Assembly (NCBI GenBank): GCA_964436845.1
Contig: CAYTEF010000003.1
Coordinates: 1 to 32,924 of the forward strand
Direction of reading: 5' to 3'
Length of the DNA stretch: 32,924 bases
From: an uncultured Candidatus Saccharibacteria bacterium
GTDB taxonomy: Bacteria > Patescibacteriota > Minisyncoccia > 2-01-FULL-47-10 > JBBTYX01
Each line of letters opens with the position of its first letter. The first letter of the stretch is position 1. Both the position numbers and the translations under genes were made by a program. The notes under the pieces are model-generated. The model ran no database searches. It saw nothing but the letters and a program-made list of their open reading frames with translations, and was not told the DNA's origin. This document shows, piece by piece, positions 13-11,050 of the stretch.

Positions 13-142
13 CCACTGGTCAAACCAGTGGTTTACCTTAAAGCTAACTAATTAATATCGTCGGCGTTTTTTCTGCGTTTTTCTGCGTAAAGTCTGCTAA
101 TTTCTGCGAGTACTTCCGACAAATTTATTTTAAGGAAGTACT
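13..142 (-). repeat. Hairpin-bounded repeat element, copy A (phased CTGCG units; shares a 40-nt core with the leuS insert)
   Basis: 71..110 is 36/40 identical (ungapped, same orientation) to 9976..10015. CTGC(G) recurs at 73, 83, 94 and 104 (10-11 nt spacing). Flanked by hairpins 109..117/134..142 (9 bp, touching the ftsX stop codon) and 13..19/25..31 (7 bp). Confidence 0.7.
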
Positions 143-3901: not shown

Positions 3902-4618
3902 CTAGAATAGCTGCTTAGCTATTTGTTTAGCCCGCATTAAAATCCCTTCTTCGCTTGGTAGTACCAGAGGGCTCTCCCGAACAAATTCCTTTACTCTTCC
4001 TTCGGCAAAATCCTCAATAACCTCTATTTGCAGTTCGTGTTCTTCGGGCAAGAGTCGCTTTTTTAAAGAGAAAGCATCATCTTCCCGAAGAATGCCCATT
4101 CGTCGCGTCTTAATAAGGGTTCCCTCATCATATTCCACCGCAACCCGTTGTGCGGTGGCTTCCGTCCAGTGATCACGACCACTAGCTCGAGTGAAGAAAA
4201 GCCTGGTATAGTGGACGCGCAACCCAAACATTCCTTGCCCGCCAAAATCGGGTCTGCCCGGATCAAGGGGGCCTGGATGCTGGTTTACCATCATCCCTTG
4301 GTAGGCCTCAATCACGCTCGGCGGGGTTTTTACCATCCACCCGTACTGGCCGATGAAGTCAACCCCGCGGGCTTTGCAGGCTTTGATGATTGCTTCGCCA
4401 AAGGCGTGAGAATCATCATAGTCCTTTGGCCGAAGGACTATGACATTATCAGAGGAAATCCCCTGGGCAAGGACTTTCTGGATCCCCTCCGTCGGTCGGC
4501 TTGCAATGACTAAAGCCGGCGCAACTCTTTTAAGCCTGCCTCGGTTACAAGCCTTCAAAATAGCCTCGGCGGTAGTGCCGCTGCTGGAAATCAGCATCGC
4601 GATTCGTAACTTTTCCAT
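3902..4618 (-). CDS. purN: Phosphoribosylglycinamide formyltransferase-like protein
   Basis: ORF 3902..4756. Start moved to ATG 4618, which has AGGAGG 6 nt upstream. The formyltransferase N-domain pattern is present (RIAMLISSSGTTAEAIL, VNQHPGPLD). Confidence 0.75.
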   Translation of the reverse strand: MEKLRIAMLISSSGTTAEAILKACNRGRLKRVAPALVIASRPTEGIQKVLAQGISSDNVIVLRPKDYDDSHAFGEAIIKACKARGVDFIGQYGWMVKTPPSVIEAYQGMMVNQHPGPLDPGRPDFGGQGMFGLRVHYTRLFFTRASGRDHWTEATAQRVAVEYDEGTLIKTRRMGILREDDAFSLKKRLLPEEHELQIEVIEDFAEGRVKEFVRESPLVLPSEEGILMRAKQIAKQLF

Positions 4619-4675
4619 TATATGCCTCCTTTTTTGGTTTTGTGGTGCACAAACCGATATTGGTTTGTTGCCTTG

Positions 4676-4703
4676 AGTATAATCGGGTTTGGGAAAAACG
4701 CAA
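4676..4703 (-). promoter_or_regulatory. Possible promoter for purN-purD
   Basis: Minus strand reads TTGCGT, 16 nt, TATACT, directly after the pyrC terminator T-tract. Confidence 0.35.
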
Positions 4704-4744
4704 GAAAAAAAAGGAACCTGCCGGAGCAAAAAGCTCCAGCAGGT
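4703..4744 (-). terminator. Rho-independent terminator after pyrC
   Basis: Interrupted 11-bp stem at 4716..4744 (acctgc-c-ggagc aaaaa gctcc-a-gcaggt), followed on the minus strand by TCCTTTTTTTT. Confidence 0.6.
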
Positions 4745-4752
4745 CAGGTTAT

Positions 4753-6042
4753 TCAAAGAAACATTTTTCCGCCCACTATCACATGGGCGATTCGTGGTAC
4801 CTCCACGCCTTCATACGGTGTCCACCCACACTTGCTCCTCATATCCTCCTTGGTAAGTGGTTTGACCACGTTCATGTCTATGAGGACGAGATCGGCGTCA
4901 TACCCGACGTCAATCGCTCCCTTTTGAGAGAGCTGTCGGAAGATTTTTGCGGCGTTTCGGGATATTAAATCAACAAGTCGTGAAATACCCATCCTCTTTT
5001 CACGCACGAGGCGTAAAAGTAGGGGAAGGGTGGTTTGAACCCCGGGAAGGCCGCTGGGGATATTTTCATACTCTTTTGCCTTTTTTTCTTCTGGCAAATG
5101 AGGCGCGTGGTCAGAAGCGACCACTTCCACATACCCTTCTTCGCAGGTAAGTTCCAAAAGTTCATTTTGCGCTTCCTCGTAGCGCAAAGGAGGATTTACC
5201 TTAAAAAAATTTCCCAGTGGAGATTGGTAATGCTTCTGATTGAGAAAGAGATGGTGGGGGCATACTTCGGCCCACACCGATACACCACTTTTTTTTGCCT
5301 CTTTGACAAGTTTGAGCGAGTCAGGCAATGAAAGGTGGCACAAGTACAGAGAACATCCTGTTTTTGCCGCTAATTCAAGCATCTCCCTTACCGCCGATAC
5401 CTCCACGTCGCTTGAACGAATAATTGAATGGTCAGCGACAGTCAGGGGGTTCTTGAAAGAGGCAAGGTTTTTCTGGATAAGCTCTTCTGTTTCTGCGTGC
5501 ACGGCAACGATAGCCTGTTGCTCTGCGCACAAACGAAAGAGCTCTCGCAGCTTTTTTTGATTTGTGAAAAGCAGGCTGCCGGTTGAAGATCCGCGGAAAA
5601 GCTTCACTCCAACAACGTGTTCGTGGAGGAGCGCTTTTTCTGTTTCCGCGAAATTATGCTCCGTTGCGCCAAACCAGAAGCCAAAGTTCAAGGCCACACC
5701 CCCAAGAGCTTTTACAATAATCTCCTCCTTTTTCTTTATTTCCTCAAGCGTTGTCAGCGGGGGATCGGTGTTTGGCATGTCAAACACGGTCGTGATCCCG
5801 CCATAGAGCGCGGCTCTTGATCCATGAGCCCAGTCTTCCTTACGGGTGTACCCGGGTGTGCGAAAATGCACATGGGGGTCAATGCCGCCCGGAAGAAGTA
5901 AAAGGTTTTTCGCGTCAATCCATGTTTCAGCCGTATGGTGATCACCAATGGCGCGAATGGTTGAGTCATAGATGGAAACAGTTTTAACACTTCCATCCGG
6001 CAGTGTCGCGTTGCGGATTTCCCAAACGTTTGGCATATACAT
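4753..6042 (-). CDS. pyrC: Dihydroorotase (cyclic amidohydrolase family)
   Basis: 429-aa ORF with metal ligands DPHVHFR and ASDHAPH. AAGGAGG lies upstream; the third codon ATG (6036) has the better SD spacing. Confidence 0.85.
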   Translation of the reverse strand: MYMPNVWEIRNATLPDGSVKTVSIYDSTIRAIGDHHTAETWIDAKNLLLLPGGIDPHVHFRTPGYTRKEDWAHGSRAALYGGITTVFDMPNTDPPLTTLEEIKKKEEIIVKALGGVALNFGFWFGATEHNFAETEKALLHEHVVGVKLFRGSSTGSLLFTNQKKLRELFRLCAEQQAIVAVHAETEELIQKNLASFKNPLTVADHSIIRSSDVEVSAVREMLELAAKTGCSLYLCHLSLPDSLKLVKEAKKSGVSVWAEVCPHHLFLNQKHYQSPLGNFFKVNPPLRYEEAQNELLELTCEEGYVEVVASDHAPHLPEEKKAKEYENIPSGLPGVQTTLPLLLRLVREKRMGISRLVDLISRNAAKIFRQLSQKGAIDVGYDADLVLIDMNVVKPLTKEDMRSKCGWTPYEGVEVPRIAHVIVGGKMFL

Positions 6043-6111
6043 TCCTCCTTATGTTGAAAAAAGTGTACGGTCAAATTGGCGTTAGTGTAGCAGAAGAGTT
6101 TTATCAGCACA

Positions 6112-6159
6112 AGAGAAAAAGGCTCCCCGCGAATCGTTTCTTGCGATCGCACAGGAGCC
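6112..6159 (-). terminator. Rho-independent terminator after pyrD
   Basis: Stem ggctcc 6121..6126 / ggagcc 6154..6159 with internal pairing, followed on the minus strand by TTTTTCTCTT. Confidence 0.55.
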
Positions 6160-6168
6160 CTAATATTT

Positions 6169-7296
6169 TTACAGTGTCCTCGGCCAGAGTGCTCTTACTT
6201 CAGAAATGTTTTTAAAACCATGTTCCCGAAGTTTTAAACGCAAACCCTGGTTTATCATTTTAGGAAGGAAGGGACCTTGATAAACAAGGGCTGTGTACAC
6301 TTGGACAAGATTGGCGCCTGCTTCAAGCATACGCCAAGCGTCCTCGGATCCAGAAATTCCCCCTACGCCAATGATAACGAAGTCCTCGTCTACCCGTTGG
6401 CGGATATAGCGCACGATTGCGTGCGCCTTTCCAAAAAGCGAAGGTCCGCTTAAACCGCCTTCTTCATTGATAGACGTCTTGAGACCTCTGCGTTCGGTTG
6501 TTGTGTTGGTGGCGATAAGCCCTTGAATTCCGAGTTCTTTACAGATGTTGATCACGTCGTCAATAGCTCCCCGAGAAAGATCGGGAGCAATTTTCACAAG
6601 AAGCGGTTTAGGGTTTGCTTTATACTGATTCGCCAGTTTTTTATTTTTGGCAATCAGCGCTTCCAAGAGCTCCTTGAGTTTATCAACATCTTGAAGTTGC
6701 CGGAGATCAGGCGTATTGGGAGAGCTGACATTAATCACAAAGCCGCAGGCATATAGATAGAGCTTCTCAAAACTGTACAAGTAATCCCGCGAAGCCTTAT
6801 CTAAGGGAGTTTTTTTTGATTTCCCGATGTTAATAAACATAGGCTCTAAGGGTAGTCTTCCTTTCCAGAAATGGATATTAAGACGTGTGGCGACAACATC
6901 TGCCCCATCACTATTAAACCCCATGCGATTGATAAGGGCTTTGTCCTGCTCAAGGCGAAAAATTCGTGGTCGGGGGTTTCCCATCTGCTCTTCGGCAACA
7001 ACTGTCCCCAATTCGAAAAAACCAAATCCTATTGCCGGCCATATATTTGGAACAAGGCCGTTTTTATCCATGCCGCCGGGCAACCCTACGGGGTTGGGAA
7101 AACGCATTCCCCAAAAGGTCTGGGCAAGATTCGGAGAATCCGATCCCAGAGCAAGCCGCAAAGCTTTAAGAGCCCAAGGATGTCGGTGGACTCCTTGCAA
7201 GTACCCCATCACCCGTTTGTGGGCTTCCTCAGGGTCGGAGGAAAAGCCGAATAACCTTGGCCGTACGAACTTTTCATATCCAAATTCGCTTAACAT
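6169..7296 (-). CDS. pyrD: Dihydroorotate dehydrogenase (quinone-type, class 2-like)
   Basis: 375-aa ORF with GFFELGTV, NRMGFNS and EEGGLSG motifs. AGGAG lies 8 nt upstream of the ATG. Confidence 0.9.
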   Translation of the reverse strand: MLSEFGYEKFVRPRLFGFSSDPEEAHKRVMGYLQGVHRHPWALKALRLALGSDSPNLAQTFWGMRFPNPVGLPGGMDKNGLVPNIWPAIGFGFFELGTVVAEEQMGNPRPRIFRLEQDKALINRMGFNSDGADVVATRLNIHFWKGRLPLEPMFINIGKSKKTPLDKASRDYLYSFEKLYLYACGFVINVSSPNTPDLRQLQDVDKLKELLEALIAKNKKLANQYKANPKPLLVKIAPDLSRGAIDDVINICKELGIQGLIATNTTTERRGLKTSINEEGGLSGPSLFGKAHAIVRYIRQRVDEDFVIIGVGGISGSEDAWRMLEAGANLVQVYTALVYQGPFLPKMINQGLRLKLREHGFKNISEVRALWPRTL

Positions 7297-7411
7297 TATC
7301 TATTCTCCTTTCGGTTCTTATTCGATTGTTTAAAAAGATTCAATGTACCCCCAATGTACCTCCTTTACTTGGTTTTGAAAGATAGTATATCTTTTCTGAT
7401 AAAAAAGCAAC

Positions 7412-7439
7412 AAAAAACGCAGAACAATCTGCGTTTTTT
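7412..7439 (-). terminator. Terminator downstream of tRNA-Trp (symmetric, potentially bidirectional)
   Basis: Perfect 12-bp stem aaaaaacgcaga/tctgcgtttttt with a 4-nt loop; A-run and T-run on either side. Confidence 0.7.
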
Positions 7440-7443
7440 GAAT

Positions 7444-7514
7444 CAGGGGCGGAGGGAATCGAACCCCCGACATGGCTTTTGGAGAGCCAAGTTATACCAC
7501 TTAACTACACCCCT
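7444..7514 (-). tRNA. tRNA-Trp: tRNA-Trp (anticodon CCA)
   Basis: Manual cloverleaf on the minus strand: acceptor AGGGGTG/CGCCCCT, D arm GTTA-AGTGGTA-TAAC, anticodon stem TGGCT/AGCCA with loop CTCCAAA, T arm GGGGG-TTCGATT-CCCTC, discriminator G. No CCA is encoded. Confidence 0.9.
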
Positions 7515-7559
7515 ATATACTAAACTCTACGACTAACAATTTACAGCCATCGAAGCAAG

Positions 7560-7958
7560 TTACAAGAGATTCAAAAATTTATTGGCGGTAAGAATCGTAA
7601 CATCCTCAAAGGAACCCAATGCGAGGAGCTCTTTATCACCGGTGATGATATACCGGCAATTCCCTTCAAGCGCTGCTTCCAGTACTCTATTGTCAGGGTT
7701 GTTATCGTTTAGTATGTCCACCTGCTTGATTGGGTGAACCATTCTAAAGCTCTGTTTTATTTTGTGTTCAGTGAGTTTGAGGGTTTCTTTAGGGAAAGAG
7801 AATTTTTTGGATAAGACATCTAAAAGTTCGGCGAGGAGCGGGGGAGAGGTTACCGCTTCTATGTGTTTTGTGATAGCGAGCTTAAGGATTTCGCGTGGTT
7901 TGCCGCCAAAAAGAAGGGCGGAAATTATAACGTTGGTGTCTATGAGCACCTTTACCAT
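7560..7958 (-). CDS. PIN-domain toxin (TA-system ribonuclease family)
   Basis: 132-aa ORF with acidic residues in PIN positions (VLIDTNV, LLAELLD, IITGDKELL). Starts 2 nt after the RHH gene. Confidence 0.85.
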   Translation of the reverse strand: MVKVLIDTNVIISALLFGGKPREILKLAITKHIEAVTSPPLLAELLDVLSKKFSFPKETLKLTEHKIKQSFRMVHPIKQVDILNDNNPDNRVLEAALEGNCRYIITGDKELLALGSFEDVTILTANKFLNLL

Positions 7959-7960
7959 GC

Positions 7961-8203
7961 CTATTTCTTATGGCGATAATCAGTGACTACCTTGTTAGCC
8001 CTTCTTTCATCGGTGATTCCCATTTTTTTGGCTTGGCGTTGACCTATTGTAAAAATTTTTTCCCATTCTTGAGTATTTTTGAGATACATGCGCAATGCTT
8101 CGCGAATGAGTTCGCTCCGATTACGGTATTCCTTTTTCGCCGTCCTGTCTATGGTTTTAACGAGATTCTCGGGTAAAGCAATATTCAATGTTTGTGTTTT
8201 CAT
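7961..8203 (-). CDS. Ribbon-helix-helix (CopG-like) antitoxin
   Basis: MKTQTLNIALPENLVKTIDRTAKKEYRNRSELIREALRMYL is the classic RHH strand-helix-helix pattern. The ORF-track start 8215 is TTG, so ATG 8203 is preferred. Confidence 0.8.
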   Translation of the reverse strand: MKTQTLNIALPENLVKTIDRTAKKEYRNRSELIREALRMYLKNTQEWEKIFTIGQRQAKKMGITDERRANKVVTDYRHKK

Positions 8204-8209
8204 AGCAGT

Positions 8210-8224
8210 ATACAATTATTGTAT
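8210..8224. promoter_or_regulatory. Palindrome ATACAAT-T-ATTGTAT, candidate RHH operator
   Basis: Perfect 7+7 inverted repeat, 7 nt upstream of the antitoxin ATG. Confidence 0.35.
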
Positions 8225-8253
8225 GTAAACTGTATATATTTTTTGGCATGGCG

Positions 8254-10728
8254 TCAAGGGATCACAAAATTTATCAACTTATTGGGGACAAAGACTATCT
8301 TTTTAGGCTCGCCTGCAATCCAGTGGGTGATGGCTTCATCCTGCTTGGCAAGCGTGACTGCCTCTTCTTGCGACAAACCCATAGGGGCAGTGATTTTTCC
8401 CCGCAACTTGCCGTTGACCTGAACGATAAAGGTAATGGTGCCTTCCTGCGTAAGTGCTTCGTCAAATGACGGGAAAGATTCTTTATGAACGCTCGTTTTA
8501 TGGCCAAGCTTTGCCCACAGCTCTTCGGAAAGGTGAGGCGCGAATGGAGCAAGGAGTTTTGTAAACGTTTCATAAAGCTCCTTTCCGTAAATACCCTCAT
8601 GGAGCGTATTCACAAAGACCATGAGCGCGGAAATCGCGGTATTAAACTTTAATTCCTCTAAATCTTGAATTATTTTTTTAATCGTTTTATGGACAAACCG
8701 CAGCGTTGTTTCGTCCGTAGTTGCAGGCTTTCCTGCTCCTTTAAGCACAAAGCGGGAAGCCCTCTCCAAAAATCGGGCGATACCGTTAATTGCGCCGGGG
8801 CTCCAGGGGCCGCCTTGATCATACGGGCCCAAAAATTCTAAAAACATGCGCACCGCATCCGACCCGTACTCGGCTACCAACGGGTCTGGATCTATCACAT
8901 TACCGCGCGACTTTGACATTTTCTGTCCGTCAGATCCCAAAATAATGCCCTGATGGCGAAGCTTGGCGAATGGCTCGGTAAAGTGAATGTGCTTTAAGTC
9001 GTAGAGCGCTTTCGTAAAAAAGCGGCTGTATAAAAGATGCAATACCGTGTGTTCTGCCCCGCCGATATAAATATCCACGGGCAGCCATGCTTTCATTTTG
9101 TCCTTATTGGCAAATACTTTATCATTTTGAGGATCAGTATAGCGCAAATAATACCAGGAAGAATCCACAAAGGTATCCATGGTATCGGTCTCGCGCGTAG
9201 CCGGGCCTTTGCACTTGGGGCAGGAGGTGTTTACGAATTCCTTTACTTTTGCCAAAGGCGAGCGGCCGTCATCGGCAGGGTGAAAGTTTTTTAATTCGGG
9301 CAGTAATACCGGCAATTCTTTTTCGGGCACCGGAACAAGTCCGCATTTGGGACATTCCACCATAGGAATCGGCGCGCCCCAGTATCGCTGGCGCGACACA
9401 ATCCAGTCCCGAAGTTTGTATTGCACCTTCGGCTCTCCGAATTCTTTAGCCATCAAGGGAATTGCTTCCTGCGATTTCATCCCGGTGAATTTTCCTGAAT
9501 TAGCCAATATCCCTTCCCCTGTATATGCTTCCTCTTGATTTCCTTTTTGCGAGGCGATGACCTCAATAATAGGCAGTCCAAATGTTTTTGCAAATTCAAA
9601 GTCGCGCTCGTCATGCGCGGGCACGGCCATAATCGCTCCGGTGCCGTATTCACCTAACACATAGTCCGCAACCCAGATAGGAATTTCTTTATTAGTTGCA
9701 GGGTTAATCGCTTTTATGCCTTGTATCTCAACCCCAGTTTTTTGTTTTTGTTCAGCCTGTCGTTGCAAGGGTGTTTTTTTTAGTGATTGCTTGATGTATT
9801 CTTGTACTTCCTCATAATTCCTAATTCCTGATTCCTGATTCCTTAAGATTGGATGCTCGGGCGCTAATACCAAGTACGTCGCTCCAAAAATAGTATCCGG
9901 CCTTGTGGTAAATACTTTGATTTGCATCAAAGTCGCGGAATCACGCAGAACCGACGCTGAATTACGCTGAATTTTTTCTGCTTTTTTCTGCGTAAAGTCT
10001 GCGTATATCTGCGAGGAGTAGTGGAGCGGGAATACTATTTGCGCTCCACTACTCCTACCAATCCAGTTTTTTTGCATTGTTTTTGTGCGATCCGGCCAGT
10101 CAAGTATATCCAAATCATCCAGCAAGCGCTGGGCGTAATCGGTAATGGTAAATACCCATTGATCAATCTGGCGTTGCAATACTTCAGTATTGCAACGCTC
10201 GCATCGGCCCTCCACTACTTGTTCGTTTGCAAGCACGGTTTTGCACGAGGGGCACCAGTTTGCCCACGTTTTTCGTTTTTGCGCTTTGCCCGCCTTGAAC
10301 ATTTGCAAAAACATCCATTGTGTCCATTTATAATAGTCGGGGTTGCAGGTAATAAGCTCGCGCGACCAGTCATACATTGGCCCCATGGATTTTAATTGCA
10401 CCCGCATTGTTTCAATATTCTGAAATGTCCAGTCAGCAGGATGGATATTGCGCTTAATCGCGGCATTTTCTGCCGGAAGTCCAAATGCGTCAAAGCCAAT
10501 GGGCGAGAGCACATTGAACCCTTGCATGCGCTTAAAGCGCGCGTAGGTATCAGCGGGAGCAAAGTTATACCAGTGGCCAATATGCAAATCCCCAGAAGGA
10601 TAGGGGAACATCACAAGGTGGTAAAAATTTTTCCTTCTCTTCACCTTATCTTTTGTCTTGTAGAGATTCGCCTTTTCCCACCGCCTCTGCCACTTTTTTT
10701 CTATTTTTGGTAGATCTAATTTTGCCAT
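8254..10728 (-). CDS. leuS: Leucine-tRNA ligase
   Basis: 824-aa ORF with PYPSGDLHIGH, NWIGRS, TTRPDT (CP1 editing domain) and KMSKS. No SD precedes the ATG. Confidence 0.95.
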   Translation of the reverse strand: MAKLDLPKIEKKWQRRWEKANLYKTKDKVKRRKNFYHLVMFPYPSGDLHIGHWYNFAPADTYARFKRMQGFNVLSPIGFDAFGLPAENAAIKRNIHPADWTFQNIETMRVQLKSMGPMYDWSRELITCNPDYYKWTQWMFLQMFKAGKAQKRKTWANWCPSCKTVLANEQVVEGRCERCNTEVLQRQIDQWVFTITDYAQRLLDDLDILDWPDRTKTMQKNWIGRSSGAQIVFPLHYSSQIYADFTQKKAEKIQRNSASVLRDSATLMQIKVFTTRPDTIFGATYLVLAPEHPILRNQESGIRNYEEVQEYIKQSLKKTPLQRQAEQKQKTGVEIQGIKAINPATNKEIPIWVADYVLGEYGTGAIMAVPAHDERDFEFAKTFGLPIIEVIASQKGNQEEAYTGEGILANSGKFTGMKSQEAIPLMAKEFGEPKVQYKLRDWIVSRQRYWGAPIPMVECPKCGLVPVPEKELPVLLPELKNFHPADDGRSPLAKVKEFVNTSCPKCKGPATRETDTMDTFVDSSWYYLRYTDPQNDKVFANKDKMKAWLPVDIYIGGAEHTVLHLLYSRFFTKALYDLKHIHFTEPFAKLRHQGIILGSDGQKMSKSRGNVIDPDPLVAEYGSDAVRMFLEFLGPYDQGGPWSPGAINGIARFLERASRFVLKGAGKPATTDETTLRFVHKTIKKIIQDLEELKFNTAISALMVFVNTLHEGIYGKELYETFTKLLAPFAPHLSEELWAKLGHKTSVHKESFPSFDEALTQEGTITFIVQVNGKLRGKITAPMGLSQEEAVTLAKQDEAITHWIAGEPKKIVFVPNKLINFVIP
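9815..9842. repeat. Heptanucleotide tandem repeat (TRATTCC)x4 inside leuS
   Basis: taattcc taattcc tgattcc tgattcc; encodes RNQESGIRN just after the APEHP motif. Confidence 0.85.
9914..10055 (-). repeat. Hairpin-bounded repeat element, copy B, inserted in frame in leuS
   Basis: Core 9976..10015 matches 71..110 at 36/40. Six 10-11-nt units end in CTGC(G)/GCTGA. Junction hairpins are 10015..10028/10042..10055 (14 bp perfect) and 9914..9921/9926..9933 (8 bp perfect). Confidence 0.75.
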
Positions 10729-10729
10729 A

Positions 10730-11039
10730 CCAGGTAGTAGAAATTTGACTATTTTTTATGTGAATAAAAGTATTCTTTTAGCATACGCTTTAGTAATCGA
10801 CCACCTTGACTCGTTTTAAGGTATTTTTCTCTACGCGTGGCATCTTCTTTATTTTGATATGCTTCGTAGAAAATGAGCTGCCAGGGTCTATAAGGCTTTG
10901 TTGAGAAAACGAGTCCGCGATTATGTTCTTCTATCCGCCTTCTTAAATTTTTAGTATATCCAATATACAACGCATCCTTGGCATTTTTTAGTAAATATAC
11001 ATAGAAGAACATAATCGCTGTCAAATTTTCACTACCTGG
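10730..11039 (-). mobile_element. Inverted-repeat-bracketed GIY-YIG ORF cassette (putative)
   Basis: 10730..10749 (ccaggtagtagaaatttgac) is the reverse complement of 11020..11039 at 18/20 positions. The repeats enclose exactly one small ORF. Confidence 0.4.
10749..11012 (-). CDS. GIY-YIG nuclease family protein (small, about 87 aa)
   Basis: MFFYVYLLKNAKDALYIGYTKNLRRRIEEHNRG contains the GIY-YIG motifs. The ORF-track start 11042 would add MPGSENLTAI, which is encoded by the inverted repeat. Confidence 0.8.
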   Translation of the reverse strand: MFFYVYLLKNAKDALYIGYTKNLRRRIEEHNRGLVFSTKPYRPWQLIFYEAYQNKEDATRREKYLKTSQGGRLLKRMLKEYFYSHKK

Positions 11040-11050
11040 CATATGCTTTG

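Follow-up and report, generated by a model that had tools for sequence, protein, structure and literature searches.

Selfish DNA inside essential proteins has so far been known mainly from Rickettsia. Rickettsia palindromic elements (RPEs), which also occur in relatives such as Wolbachia, are not known to have the unit structure described below. In the summary of Ogata et al. (2000) given in PMC10969869, RPEs are sequence families of ~100–150 bp confined to Rickettsia. Perfect inverted repeats have also been reported within coding sequence in the mitochondria of Nematomorpha, where quasi-palindrome conversion by template switching was proposed and the repeats were considered “akin to parasitic DNA” (PMC6649704). 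Herein, we analyze a stretch of 32,924 nt (the window) from an uncultured Candidatus Saccharibacteria bacterium (GenBank assembly GCA_964436845.1, contig CAYTEF010000003.1, positions 1 to 32,924), whose leuS gene, encoding leucyl-tRNA synthetase (LeuRS), carries an 80-nt palindromic core. An earlier note, made from the letters of the window alone, had described an in-frame insertion resembling RPEs and bounded by hairpins built from host codons. Our results confirm that the insert is a copy of a dispersed in-frame palindromic repeat family.

The homologues of the window LeuRS are Patescibacteria/Parcubacteria LeuRS, the closest being 79%, 72%, and 68% identical, with the Pfam domains tRNA-synt_1, tRNA-synt_1_2, and Anticodon_1. 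Between the NWIG and TTRPDT motifs, the window protein has a segment of 59 aa; the corresponding length is 31 aa for 55 of the 116 related LeuRS, among them P0002 and P0003, the closest relatives. The extra length that had been noticed here is real and amounts to a net gain of 28 aa (84 nt) at the hinge before the CP1 editing domain. The features of the locus are as follows, in the direction of translation.

8254..10728, minus strand: leuS host gene, 824 aa, with the reading frame open through the element
10042..10056, minus strand: outer arm of hairpin 1, AGGAGTAGTGGAGCG, codons R-S-S-G-A of the NWIGRSxGA motif
10029..10041, minus strand: loop of hairpin 1, 13 nt, codons Q-I-V-F and part of a Pro codon, host sequence
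10014..10028, minus strand: inner arm of hairpin 1, CGCTCCACTACTCCT, adjoining the first unit with no spacer
9977..10013, minus strand: left array, CGCAGA, CGCAGA, CGCAGA, and (A)GCAGA, with GCRGA starts 10, 11, and 11 nt apart
9971..9976, minus strand: A-rich centre AAAAAT, the tip of the core hairpin
9934..9970, minus strand: right array, TCAGCG, TCAGCG, TCTGCG, and TCCGCG, the mirror image of the left units
9914..9933, minus strand: hairpin 3, with inner arm ACTTTGAT (9926–9933), loop GCAA (9922–9925), and outer arm ATCAAAGT (9914–9921)

This anatomy demonstrates a core of 80 nt (9934..10013) with eight units, instead of the six counted before: four of CGCAGA type (10013 to 9977) and four mirrored units of TCNGCG type (9970 to 9934). 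The left and right arrays are mirror images, so that terminal inverted repeats are present. Both junction hairpins are perfect, as had been claimed. The stem of hairpin 1 is 15 bp (10014–10028 against 10042–10056), not the 14 bp first given, and that of hairpin 3 is indeed 8 bp, with no spacer to the core. The inner arm of hairpin 1 supplies the rest of the Pro codon, the codons L-H-Y-S, and all but the last base of the Ser codon that follows, linker positions that are common to the element-free relative L207. The outer arm of hairpin 3 runs through the I and K codons of IKVFTTR to the second base of the V codon, and is followed on the sense strand by TTT ACC ACA (F-T-T). RNA folding of the 171-nt region gave three consecutive hairpins within a short closing stem (z = −8.2 against shuffles). 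The whole leuS core was recovered in a profile search with nhmmer at E = 1e-20, and clusters of at least three units occurred at 0.005 per shuffled window. No such cluster was present in 655 kb covering 80 other bacterial leuS loci, which came from a metagenome scan with LeuRS and are mostly distant (44–52% identical).

The reading frame is preserved across the insert, as the earlier note had it, giving an open reading frame (ORF) of 824 aa. An AlphaFold2 model of the window LeuRS had a mean predicted local distance difference test (pLDDT) score of 87.1 and was confident outside the insert. Residues ~241–270 of the insert had block means of 51–59, with residues 256–266 below 50, and a low-confidence helix (239–255) was placed between a strand ending at 237 and a strand starting at 269. 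Because pLDDT falls to 51–59 only across the insert, the model indicates that the insert is a tolerated surface protrusion at the LeuRS hinge, in agreement with the surface loop that had been suggested. The exact window protein occurs on one contig only. A protein search with the 53-aa insert segment gave no match, and one with 130 aa around the insert gave LeuRS fragments only. A 38-aa insert peptide, a query too short for such a search, had no match at E ≤ 0.001 among 1.84 billion representatives.

A second copy of the element lies at the start of the window, between ftsX and a tRNA gene.

72..108, minus strand: second copy, left array only, four units, between the ftsX stop codon and the tRNA
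109..142, minus strand: hairpin adjoining the second copy, AGTACTTCC, 16-nt loop, GGAAGTACT; 9 bp, starting inside the ftsX stop codon

The match between the leuS core and this intergenic DNA had been noticed before, and it extends to 40 of 44 positions (67–110 against 9972–10015), although the two loci are unrelated. By our own estimate, ~1e-8 chance matches of this quality are expected in 33 kb, and the second copy gave an nhmmer E value of 1.6e-5. A profile built from nine element cores found exactly two copies in the window, the leuS core and 72..108. The contigs of L001, L206, and L207, the closest relatives, gave no match to it. Neither L001 nor L207 has the second copy at the corresponding place. 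Because relatives have just ~12 nt between ftsX and the next tRNA, the second copy is an insertion as well, and both arms of its hairpin lie in DNA that the relatives are without. The tRNA ~12 nt after ftsX in the relatives is tRNA-Gln(CTG); at positions 1–45 of the window, the contig begins within an apparent minus-strand tRNA-Gln(TTG), which ARAGORN does not call because of its truncation.

Further copies, the search for which had been proposed with the original observation, were found in other genomes in genic, rRNA, and intergenic positions. A probe of four phased units (GCRGA-N5-GCRGA-N6-GCRGA-N5-GCRGA, spacing 10-11-10) was run over one genome per species and gave at least 119 matching loci, many of them in Patescibacteria, Omnitrophota, Cyanobacteria, and Bacteroidota. 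Among the matches listed, true elements occur in the Patescibacteria (Saccharibacteria, Paceibacterota, Lipton-, Vogel-, Wolfe-, Jorgensen-, and Moranbacteria) and also in Omnitrophota, Cyanobacteria (units CGCAGAGG), Bacteroidota, Planctomycetota, and metagenome-assembled genomes of some Proteobacteria. Full elements have 4+4 units and cores of 77–90 nt, and fold as long hairpins. The leuS element has this same plan, four phased iterons mirrored by four more at a spacing of about 10-11-10, which demonstrates its membership in the family. Among arrays of three or more units, 17 of 176 exceed four units, at loci picked with the four-unit probe. Arrays of different genes and genomes have 13–16 of 16 spacer positions in common, compared with a background mode of 5. 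Together with the 40/44 match in the window, the shared spacer bases argue for copying and not for origin in place. No description of the family was found in the searchable literature, and Rfam returned only tRNA and rRNA matches in the window and eight element-bearing loci.

In-frame copies among the matches listed lie in IF-2 (three genomes, same site), RecG (two genomes, same site), LeuRS (eight alleles), CysRS, TsaD, GAPDH, GatB, AtpA, UvrB, and MnmA, and more than ten host genes carry them. All coding copies preserve the frame and contain no stop codons, demonstrating translation-compatible insertion. The leuS element is itself a palindromic repeat that lies in frame and is translated through, as RPEs are, and its intact ORF and the more than ten host genes support the in-frame insertion of a dispersed palindromic repeat put forward in the earlier note. 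An intron-like reading, with the insert taken out of the RNA, was rejected on the ground that each coding copy is in frame without a stop codon. The GCRGA (left) array occurs on either strand relative to the host ORF. Other copies are intergenic, and copies in rRNA genes lie in variable helices, in the 5′ region of 16S rRNA (helix-6 region) and at several points in 23S rRNA. A single 23S rRNA gene from Wolfebacteria (L092, 1–2482) has arrays at three places (~628, 1508–1591, and 2008–2096). At L029, L092, L098, and L123, the right flanking hairpin is an inverted copy of the left one, and the palindrome extends outward past the arrays. Two arrays 4.4 kb apart in L046 were considered as transposon ends and rejected; they are separate intergenic arrays.

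Several LeuRS alleles are occupied at the same hinge. In L004 (P0050), an 80-nt core that is 76% identical is bounded by the hairpins AGAAGTATTGGA/TCCAATACTTCT and ACTTTGAC-GAAA-GTCAAAGT. In L002 (P0035), 4+4 units of CGCGGA type are bounded by CAGAAGG/CCTTCTG and ACAGC-GATA-GCTGT, and in L006 (P0027) a 16-bp perfect hairpin is followed by four left units only. The contig of this half-element also encodes an FtsH with an intein (6668–9784; Intein_splicing, LAGLIDADG_3).

Longer forms carry an ORF between like arrays. At the same LeuRS hinge of L095, and all in frame, a 125-aa PDDEXK_3/GxxExxY domain sits between four left and four right units, the whole being preceded by an 11-bp hairpin and followed by the hairpin ACTTC-GATA-GAAGT. 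The RecG gene of L042 is organized alike, and together these loci demonstrate nuclease-carrying forms. In ~1 Mb of fetched DNA, four of four PDDEXK_3 ORFs were bracketed by inverted arrays of 10–11-nt iterons, as was one on a viral contig. The flanking iterons vary by lineage (CGCRGA, GCNAGAT, CACAGAGG, or GGATT), the D...ExK catalytic residues are conserved among the ORFs, and PDDEXK_3 was the only Pfam domain in the inserted ORFs. PDDEXK_3 (PF13366) is a PD-(D/E)xK family whose function is listed as “Unknown” (PMC3424549). Because the longer forms carry a PDDEXK_3/GxxExxY ORF between like arrays, the 80-nt short form is probably an ORF-less derivative of such units. The iterons are putative binding sites of the encoded protein, acting in trans. 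On a Saccharibacteria contig (L027, 3745–5240), several tandem copies of the short element lie beside a free-standing PDDEXK_3 gene, which is flanked by degenerate GCNAGAT and ATCTNGC arrays. At the hinge of L208 leuS (5001–7856), a 9-bp hairpin and a left array are followed by an ASCH domain, with no right array. A 228-aa Y1_Tnp gene (IS200/RAYT-type; 4252–4938) adjoins this leuS and does not lie between arrays.

The junction hairpins recur across the family. Stems of at least 7 bp are present at 30% (hairpin 1) and 23% (hairpin 3) of full elements, compared with 1.7% of random positions, and in most elements the arms adjoin the outermost iteron without a spacer. The outer arms lie in conserved codons of five genes: LeuRS, IF-2 (L048, KIT codons, 9 bp), RecG (L111, RQR and HFLT codons, 8 and 10 bp), GAPDH (L103, ISAP codons, 9 bp), and a synthetase-like gene (L070, RFV codons). 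Across the window, L004, and L002, nine base pairs show compensatory changes. In four LeuRS alleles, hairpin 3 has an inner arm that changes in step with the codon preceding Val (AAA/TTT, GAA/TTC, and GCT/AGC). These data demonstrate that the hairpins recur and co-vary with host codons, and their pairing with host codons in several genes favors templated inverted copying of the flank. A P-nucleotide origin from an opened, hairpin-capped flank was rejected as a general cause; most loops are 3–25 nt, and only L070 has a loop-free palindrome.

The description of the outer arms as conserved host codons needs one qualification: such arms recur in other genes, and that of hairpin 1 in the window is itself altered. 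The Glu of GRSEGA is Ser in the window LeuRS. This position is non-Glu in five of eight element-bearing alleles, compared with 16 of 116 LeuRS overall (the 16 including two element-bearing ones). A changed Glu codon in the outer arm implies that either arm of a hairpin can be rewritten. The net gain of 84 nt is close to the 80-nt core, which suggests that the inner arms fill positions of the ancestral 10-aa linker and are not added DNA. The element-free L207 already has F-P-L and AGG-AGT codons at the inner-arm positions. A palindrome without an array is also found in leuS, at 10171–10198, where the CxxC zinc-knuckle codons contain a perfect 13-bp stem around a 2-nt centre. Relatives pair over 5 bp only at this place (CGCTG/CAGCG), and the protein length is the same, so hairpin formation is not necessarily part of insertion. 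Perfecting of a 5-bp pairing to 13 bp at constant length is what quasi-palindrome template switching, as proposed for coding palindromes (PMC6649704), would produce by use of codon degeneracy, and hairpins 1 and 3 are consistent with it in net length, which is about that of the core alone.

The window has seven perfect hairpins with stems of 10 bp or more and loops of up to 25 nt, compared with 0.95 expected from first-order Markov simulations, and most lie inside long ORFs (4416, 10014, 10171, 11939, 21097, and 26556). A 13-bp perfect hairpin at 7411–7440 (CAAAAAACGCAGA/TCTGCGTTTTTTG) lies directly 3′ of tRNA-Trp (7443–7515, minus strand) and is terminator-like; it holds one CGCAGA/TCTGCG pair, equal to the element-unit hexamer.

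We consider it probable, as a joint reading, that the insert is a copy of a dispersed non-coding palindromic repeat, likely an ORF-less passenger, and that its hairpins were made locally by template switching. Two mirrored arrays of four 10–11-nt iterons (CGCNGA, about one per DNA turn) would be bound by a trans-acting protein, and the 80-nt form would be a passenger resembling a miniature inverted-repeat transposable element (MITE), copied or maintained by nuclease or homing-type repair. The element would settle in the permissive surface linker of leuS and be translated through as 28 extra residues. The junction hairpins would not be carried by the element and would come from locally templated inverted copying of the host flank at the array boundary, where snap-back or template switching, at a stalled fork or in break repair, would make them. 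Rewriting could affect either arm and would not require a change in length. Template switching at the boundary of the element appears to fit the hairpins best. The fold-back or hairpin-primed insertion that had been suggested keeps its central element, inverted copying of the flank. Given inner arms that do not appear to be added DNA, a rewritten outer arm, a palindrome that arose without an array or insertion, and a hairpin at the intergenic copy (72..142) whose arms both lie in DNA missing from relatives, hairpin-primed insertion becomes one of several readings.

Alternatively, the hairpins could be targets, with the element or its structure-specific nuclease inserting at the foot of pre-existing host hairpins. 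PD-(D/E)xK nucleases include junction- and structure-specific enzymes, no spacer separates the arms from the outermost iteron, distant lineages have copies at the same sites, and weak complementarity is found in element-free L207 (GTAGG/CCTAC) and L001 (ACCG/CGGT and GATTTT/AAAATC). These empty-allele stems are only 4–6 bp, however, and a stem of at least 5 bp occurs at 17% of random positions. Perfect 9–16-bp stems that include conserved codons would not be expected beforehand, and the host Glu codon of LeuRS was changed to fit the inner arm, making it unlikely that the hairpins came first. Another reading takes the three-hairpin fold for an RNA structure under selection in the leuS message or rRNA, serving translation pacing at the hinge, RNA stability, or as a processing signal; this selection, and not a mutational mechanism, would keep the flanking pairings. 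The fold z-scores (−8.2 and −4.8), the consensus structure with nine compensated pairs, the GNRA loop of hairpin 3 on the sense strand in four of four LeuRS alleles, and the rRNA copies in variable helices are in line with this idea. Its improbability comes from the intergenic copies, the many unrelated genes, the left array on either strand, the hairpin 1 mismatches of L002, which are C·A on the sense strand, and the coding copies, which are stop-free and frame-preserving with no sign of RNA removal. The stems are also perfect and not merely stable, like cases attributed to conversion (PMC6649704).

Two further explanations concern the insert itself. Slippage in a short-tandem-repeat linker could have built it in place, the match to 67–110 being convergence or chance, and heptamer repeats do form the linker of the closest relatives (GAATCAG in L206; CTACAAA x4 in L207), with a second heptamer tract in leuS at 9815–9843. 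The 40/44 match to an unrelated locus nevertheless extends over the spacers, the same 4+4 architecture and spacing occur at more than 100 loci in many phyla and genes, array size is fixed at four units, and spacer subfamilies are common to several genomes. An origin in place is strongly disfavored. A chimeric join made at a repeat during assembly is hardly credible. The exact protein is on one contig only and repeats are classic mis-assembly sites, yet the frame is kept across 84 extra nt, and homologous inserts at the same codon position are found in independent assemblies of different samples and pipelines (L004 and L005; L002 and L003). Inserts of like kind in independent assemblies show that this type of insert is not an assembly artefact.

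Beyond the leuS copy, we tentatively propose an undescribed class of mobile element, a possibility that we hold short of even. In such a class, PDDEXK_3/GxxExxY genes would lie within 4+4 helically phased iteron arrays, ORF-less 80-nt derivatives would occupy housekeeping proteins and rRNA across the candidate phyla radiation (CPR), Omnitrophota, Cyanobacteria, and Bacteroidota, and protein-bound arrays would provoke template switching into perfect hairpins.

Several points weigh against mobility and local hairpin formation as set out above. No transposition or homing event was observed, and no strain-level pair of filled and empty alleles fixes the exact boundaries. No PDDEXK_3 gene lies within the 33-kb window, and the cargo is not always a nuclease, since the LeuRS of L208 has an ASCH domain after the left array. 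The right array of the window is not the reverse complement of the left array, so a full element may be two independent half-modules. The taxonomic picture is a sample, drawn from the matches listed. Selection on RNA or DNA structure would yield the same hairpin co-variation. Finally, the element, its hairpins, and the segment length are common to the window and L004, yet identity between the two LeuRS is only 57%, and nearer relatives are without the element. Their leuS genes have 60% nucleotide identity with no raised similarity in the flanks, and no co-conversion tract between the two was found beyond NWIG and FTTR. This sharing despite divergence requires horizontal spread, or an ancient insertion with many precise losses. 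A cassette may have spread between leuS alleles, or an old element may often have been precisely lost; we prefer neither.

RPEs are the nearest analogue of the leuS element. We know of no RPE with iteron arrays, a nuclease-carrying form, or host-codon junction hairpins. The summary of RPEs in PMC10969869, as far as it goes, likewise makes no mention of them. In that account, RPEs resemble the leuS element as short palindromic selfish repeats that lie in frame in unrelated housekeeping genes at tolerated positions and also in non-coding DNA (PMC10969869). By these descriptions, the leuS element is set apart from RPEs by its 80 nt, its 4+4 phased hexamer units, and its occurrence in CPR, Omnitrophota, Cyanobacteria, and Bacteroidota. 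MITEs and repetitive extragenic palindrome (REP) doublets forming hairpins (REPINs) are likewise non-autonomous, with inverted ends that fold as hairpins (PMC3116915, PMC10969869). REP-associated tyrosine transposase (RAYT) genes flanked by REPs recall the nuclease gene flanked by iteron arrays, the repeats in both cases presumably being acted on by their own protein (PMC3116915, PMC10969869). Unlike in these systems, the ends of the present family are arrays of four short iterons, and no REP tetranucleotide is present. No direct repeat flanks the core as a MITE target-site duplication would, flank-specific hairpins being found instead, and no DDE, serine, or Y1 transposase of a MITE parent lies between arrays, only PDDEXK_3/GxxExxY and once ASCH. 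The 10–11-nt iterons and locus-specific hairpins are also not the 20–40-nt REP hairpin with a 5′ tetranucleotide and flanked Y1 transposase of REP/REPIN-RAYT systems. The leuS element acts like RPEs and like MITEs/REPINs but is neither a MITE nor a REPIN by these tests. The inserted ORFs of the longer forms have neither the splicing blocks of an intein nor a self-splicing intron of the homing-endonuclease kind around the nuclease, and the short form is without an ORF.

Intervening sequences of bacterial rRNA are extended stem-loops in variable rRNA helices, some with small ORFs. The family copies in the 16S helix-6 region and 23S rRNA are comparable to them, whereas the copy studied here is in a protein-coding gene. 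The cyanobacterial small dispersed repeats (SDRs) and short tandemly repeated repetitive sequences (STRRs) of Elhai et al. 2008 are reportedly very small mobile repeats that nest in hairpins and heptamer tracts, with length-neutral replacement. Their units and architecture are said to be other than those of the leuS element. The Nematomorpha repeats share with the junction hairpins that perfect inverted repeats of functional codons are kept perfect (PMC6649704). They reach 284 bp, in animal mitochondria, with no tie to a dispersed element, whereas the junction stems here are 5–16 bp and lie at the edges of iteron arrays (PMC6649704).

If the proposed explanation is true, selfish DNA inside essential proteins would extend on a large scale to CPR and other poorly known phyla. 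It would explain many odd low-complexity loops (TQTNADGTQ, PRESALSPRES) and short rRNA insertions in those genomes, and would matter for annotation, alignment, and phylogeny of CPR marker genes. It would also offer an initial clue to what the large PDDEXK_3/GxxExxY family does, and a natural system tying a defined DNA element to perfect hairpins from host codons, with a bearing on template switching in genes.

Heptamer tracts are a further feature of leuS. The tract at 9815–9843 is TAATTCC x4 (sense AATCAGG AATCAGG AATTAGG AATTATG), and length is unchanged. Relatives have other heptamer tracts in these two loops of leuS, at the hinge GAATCAG (L206) and CTACAAA x4 (L207). Many Parcubacteria have the peptide NLKSQISNLK in these loops, for which (AATCTCA)n coding is suggested. 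Directly upstream of leuS is a 97-aa GIY-YIG nuclease ORF (10749–11042) that holds a 35-nt inverted repeat of 80% identity (10900–10934 against 11001–11035). Downstream, at 7560–8215, lies a PIN/ribbon-helix-helix toxin-antitoxin pair.

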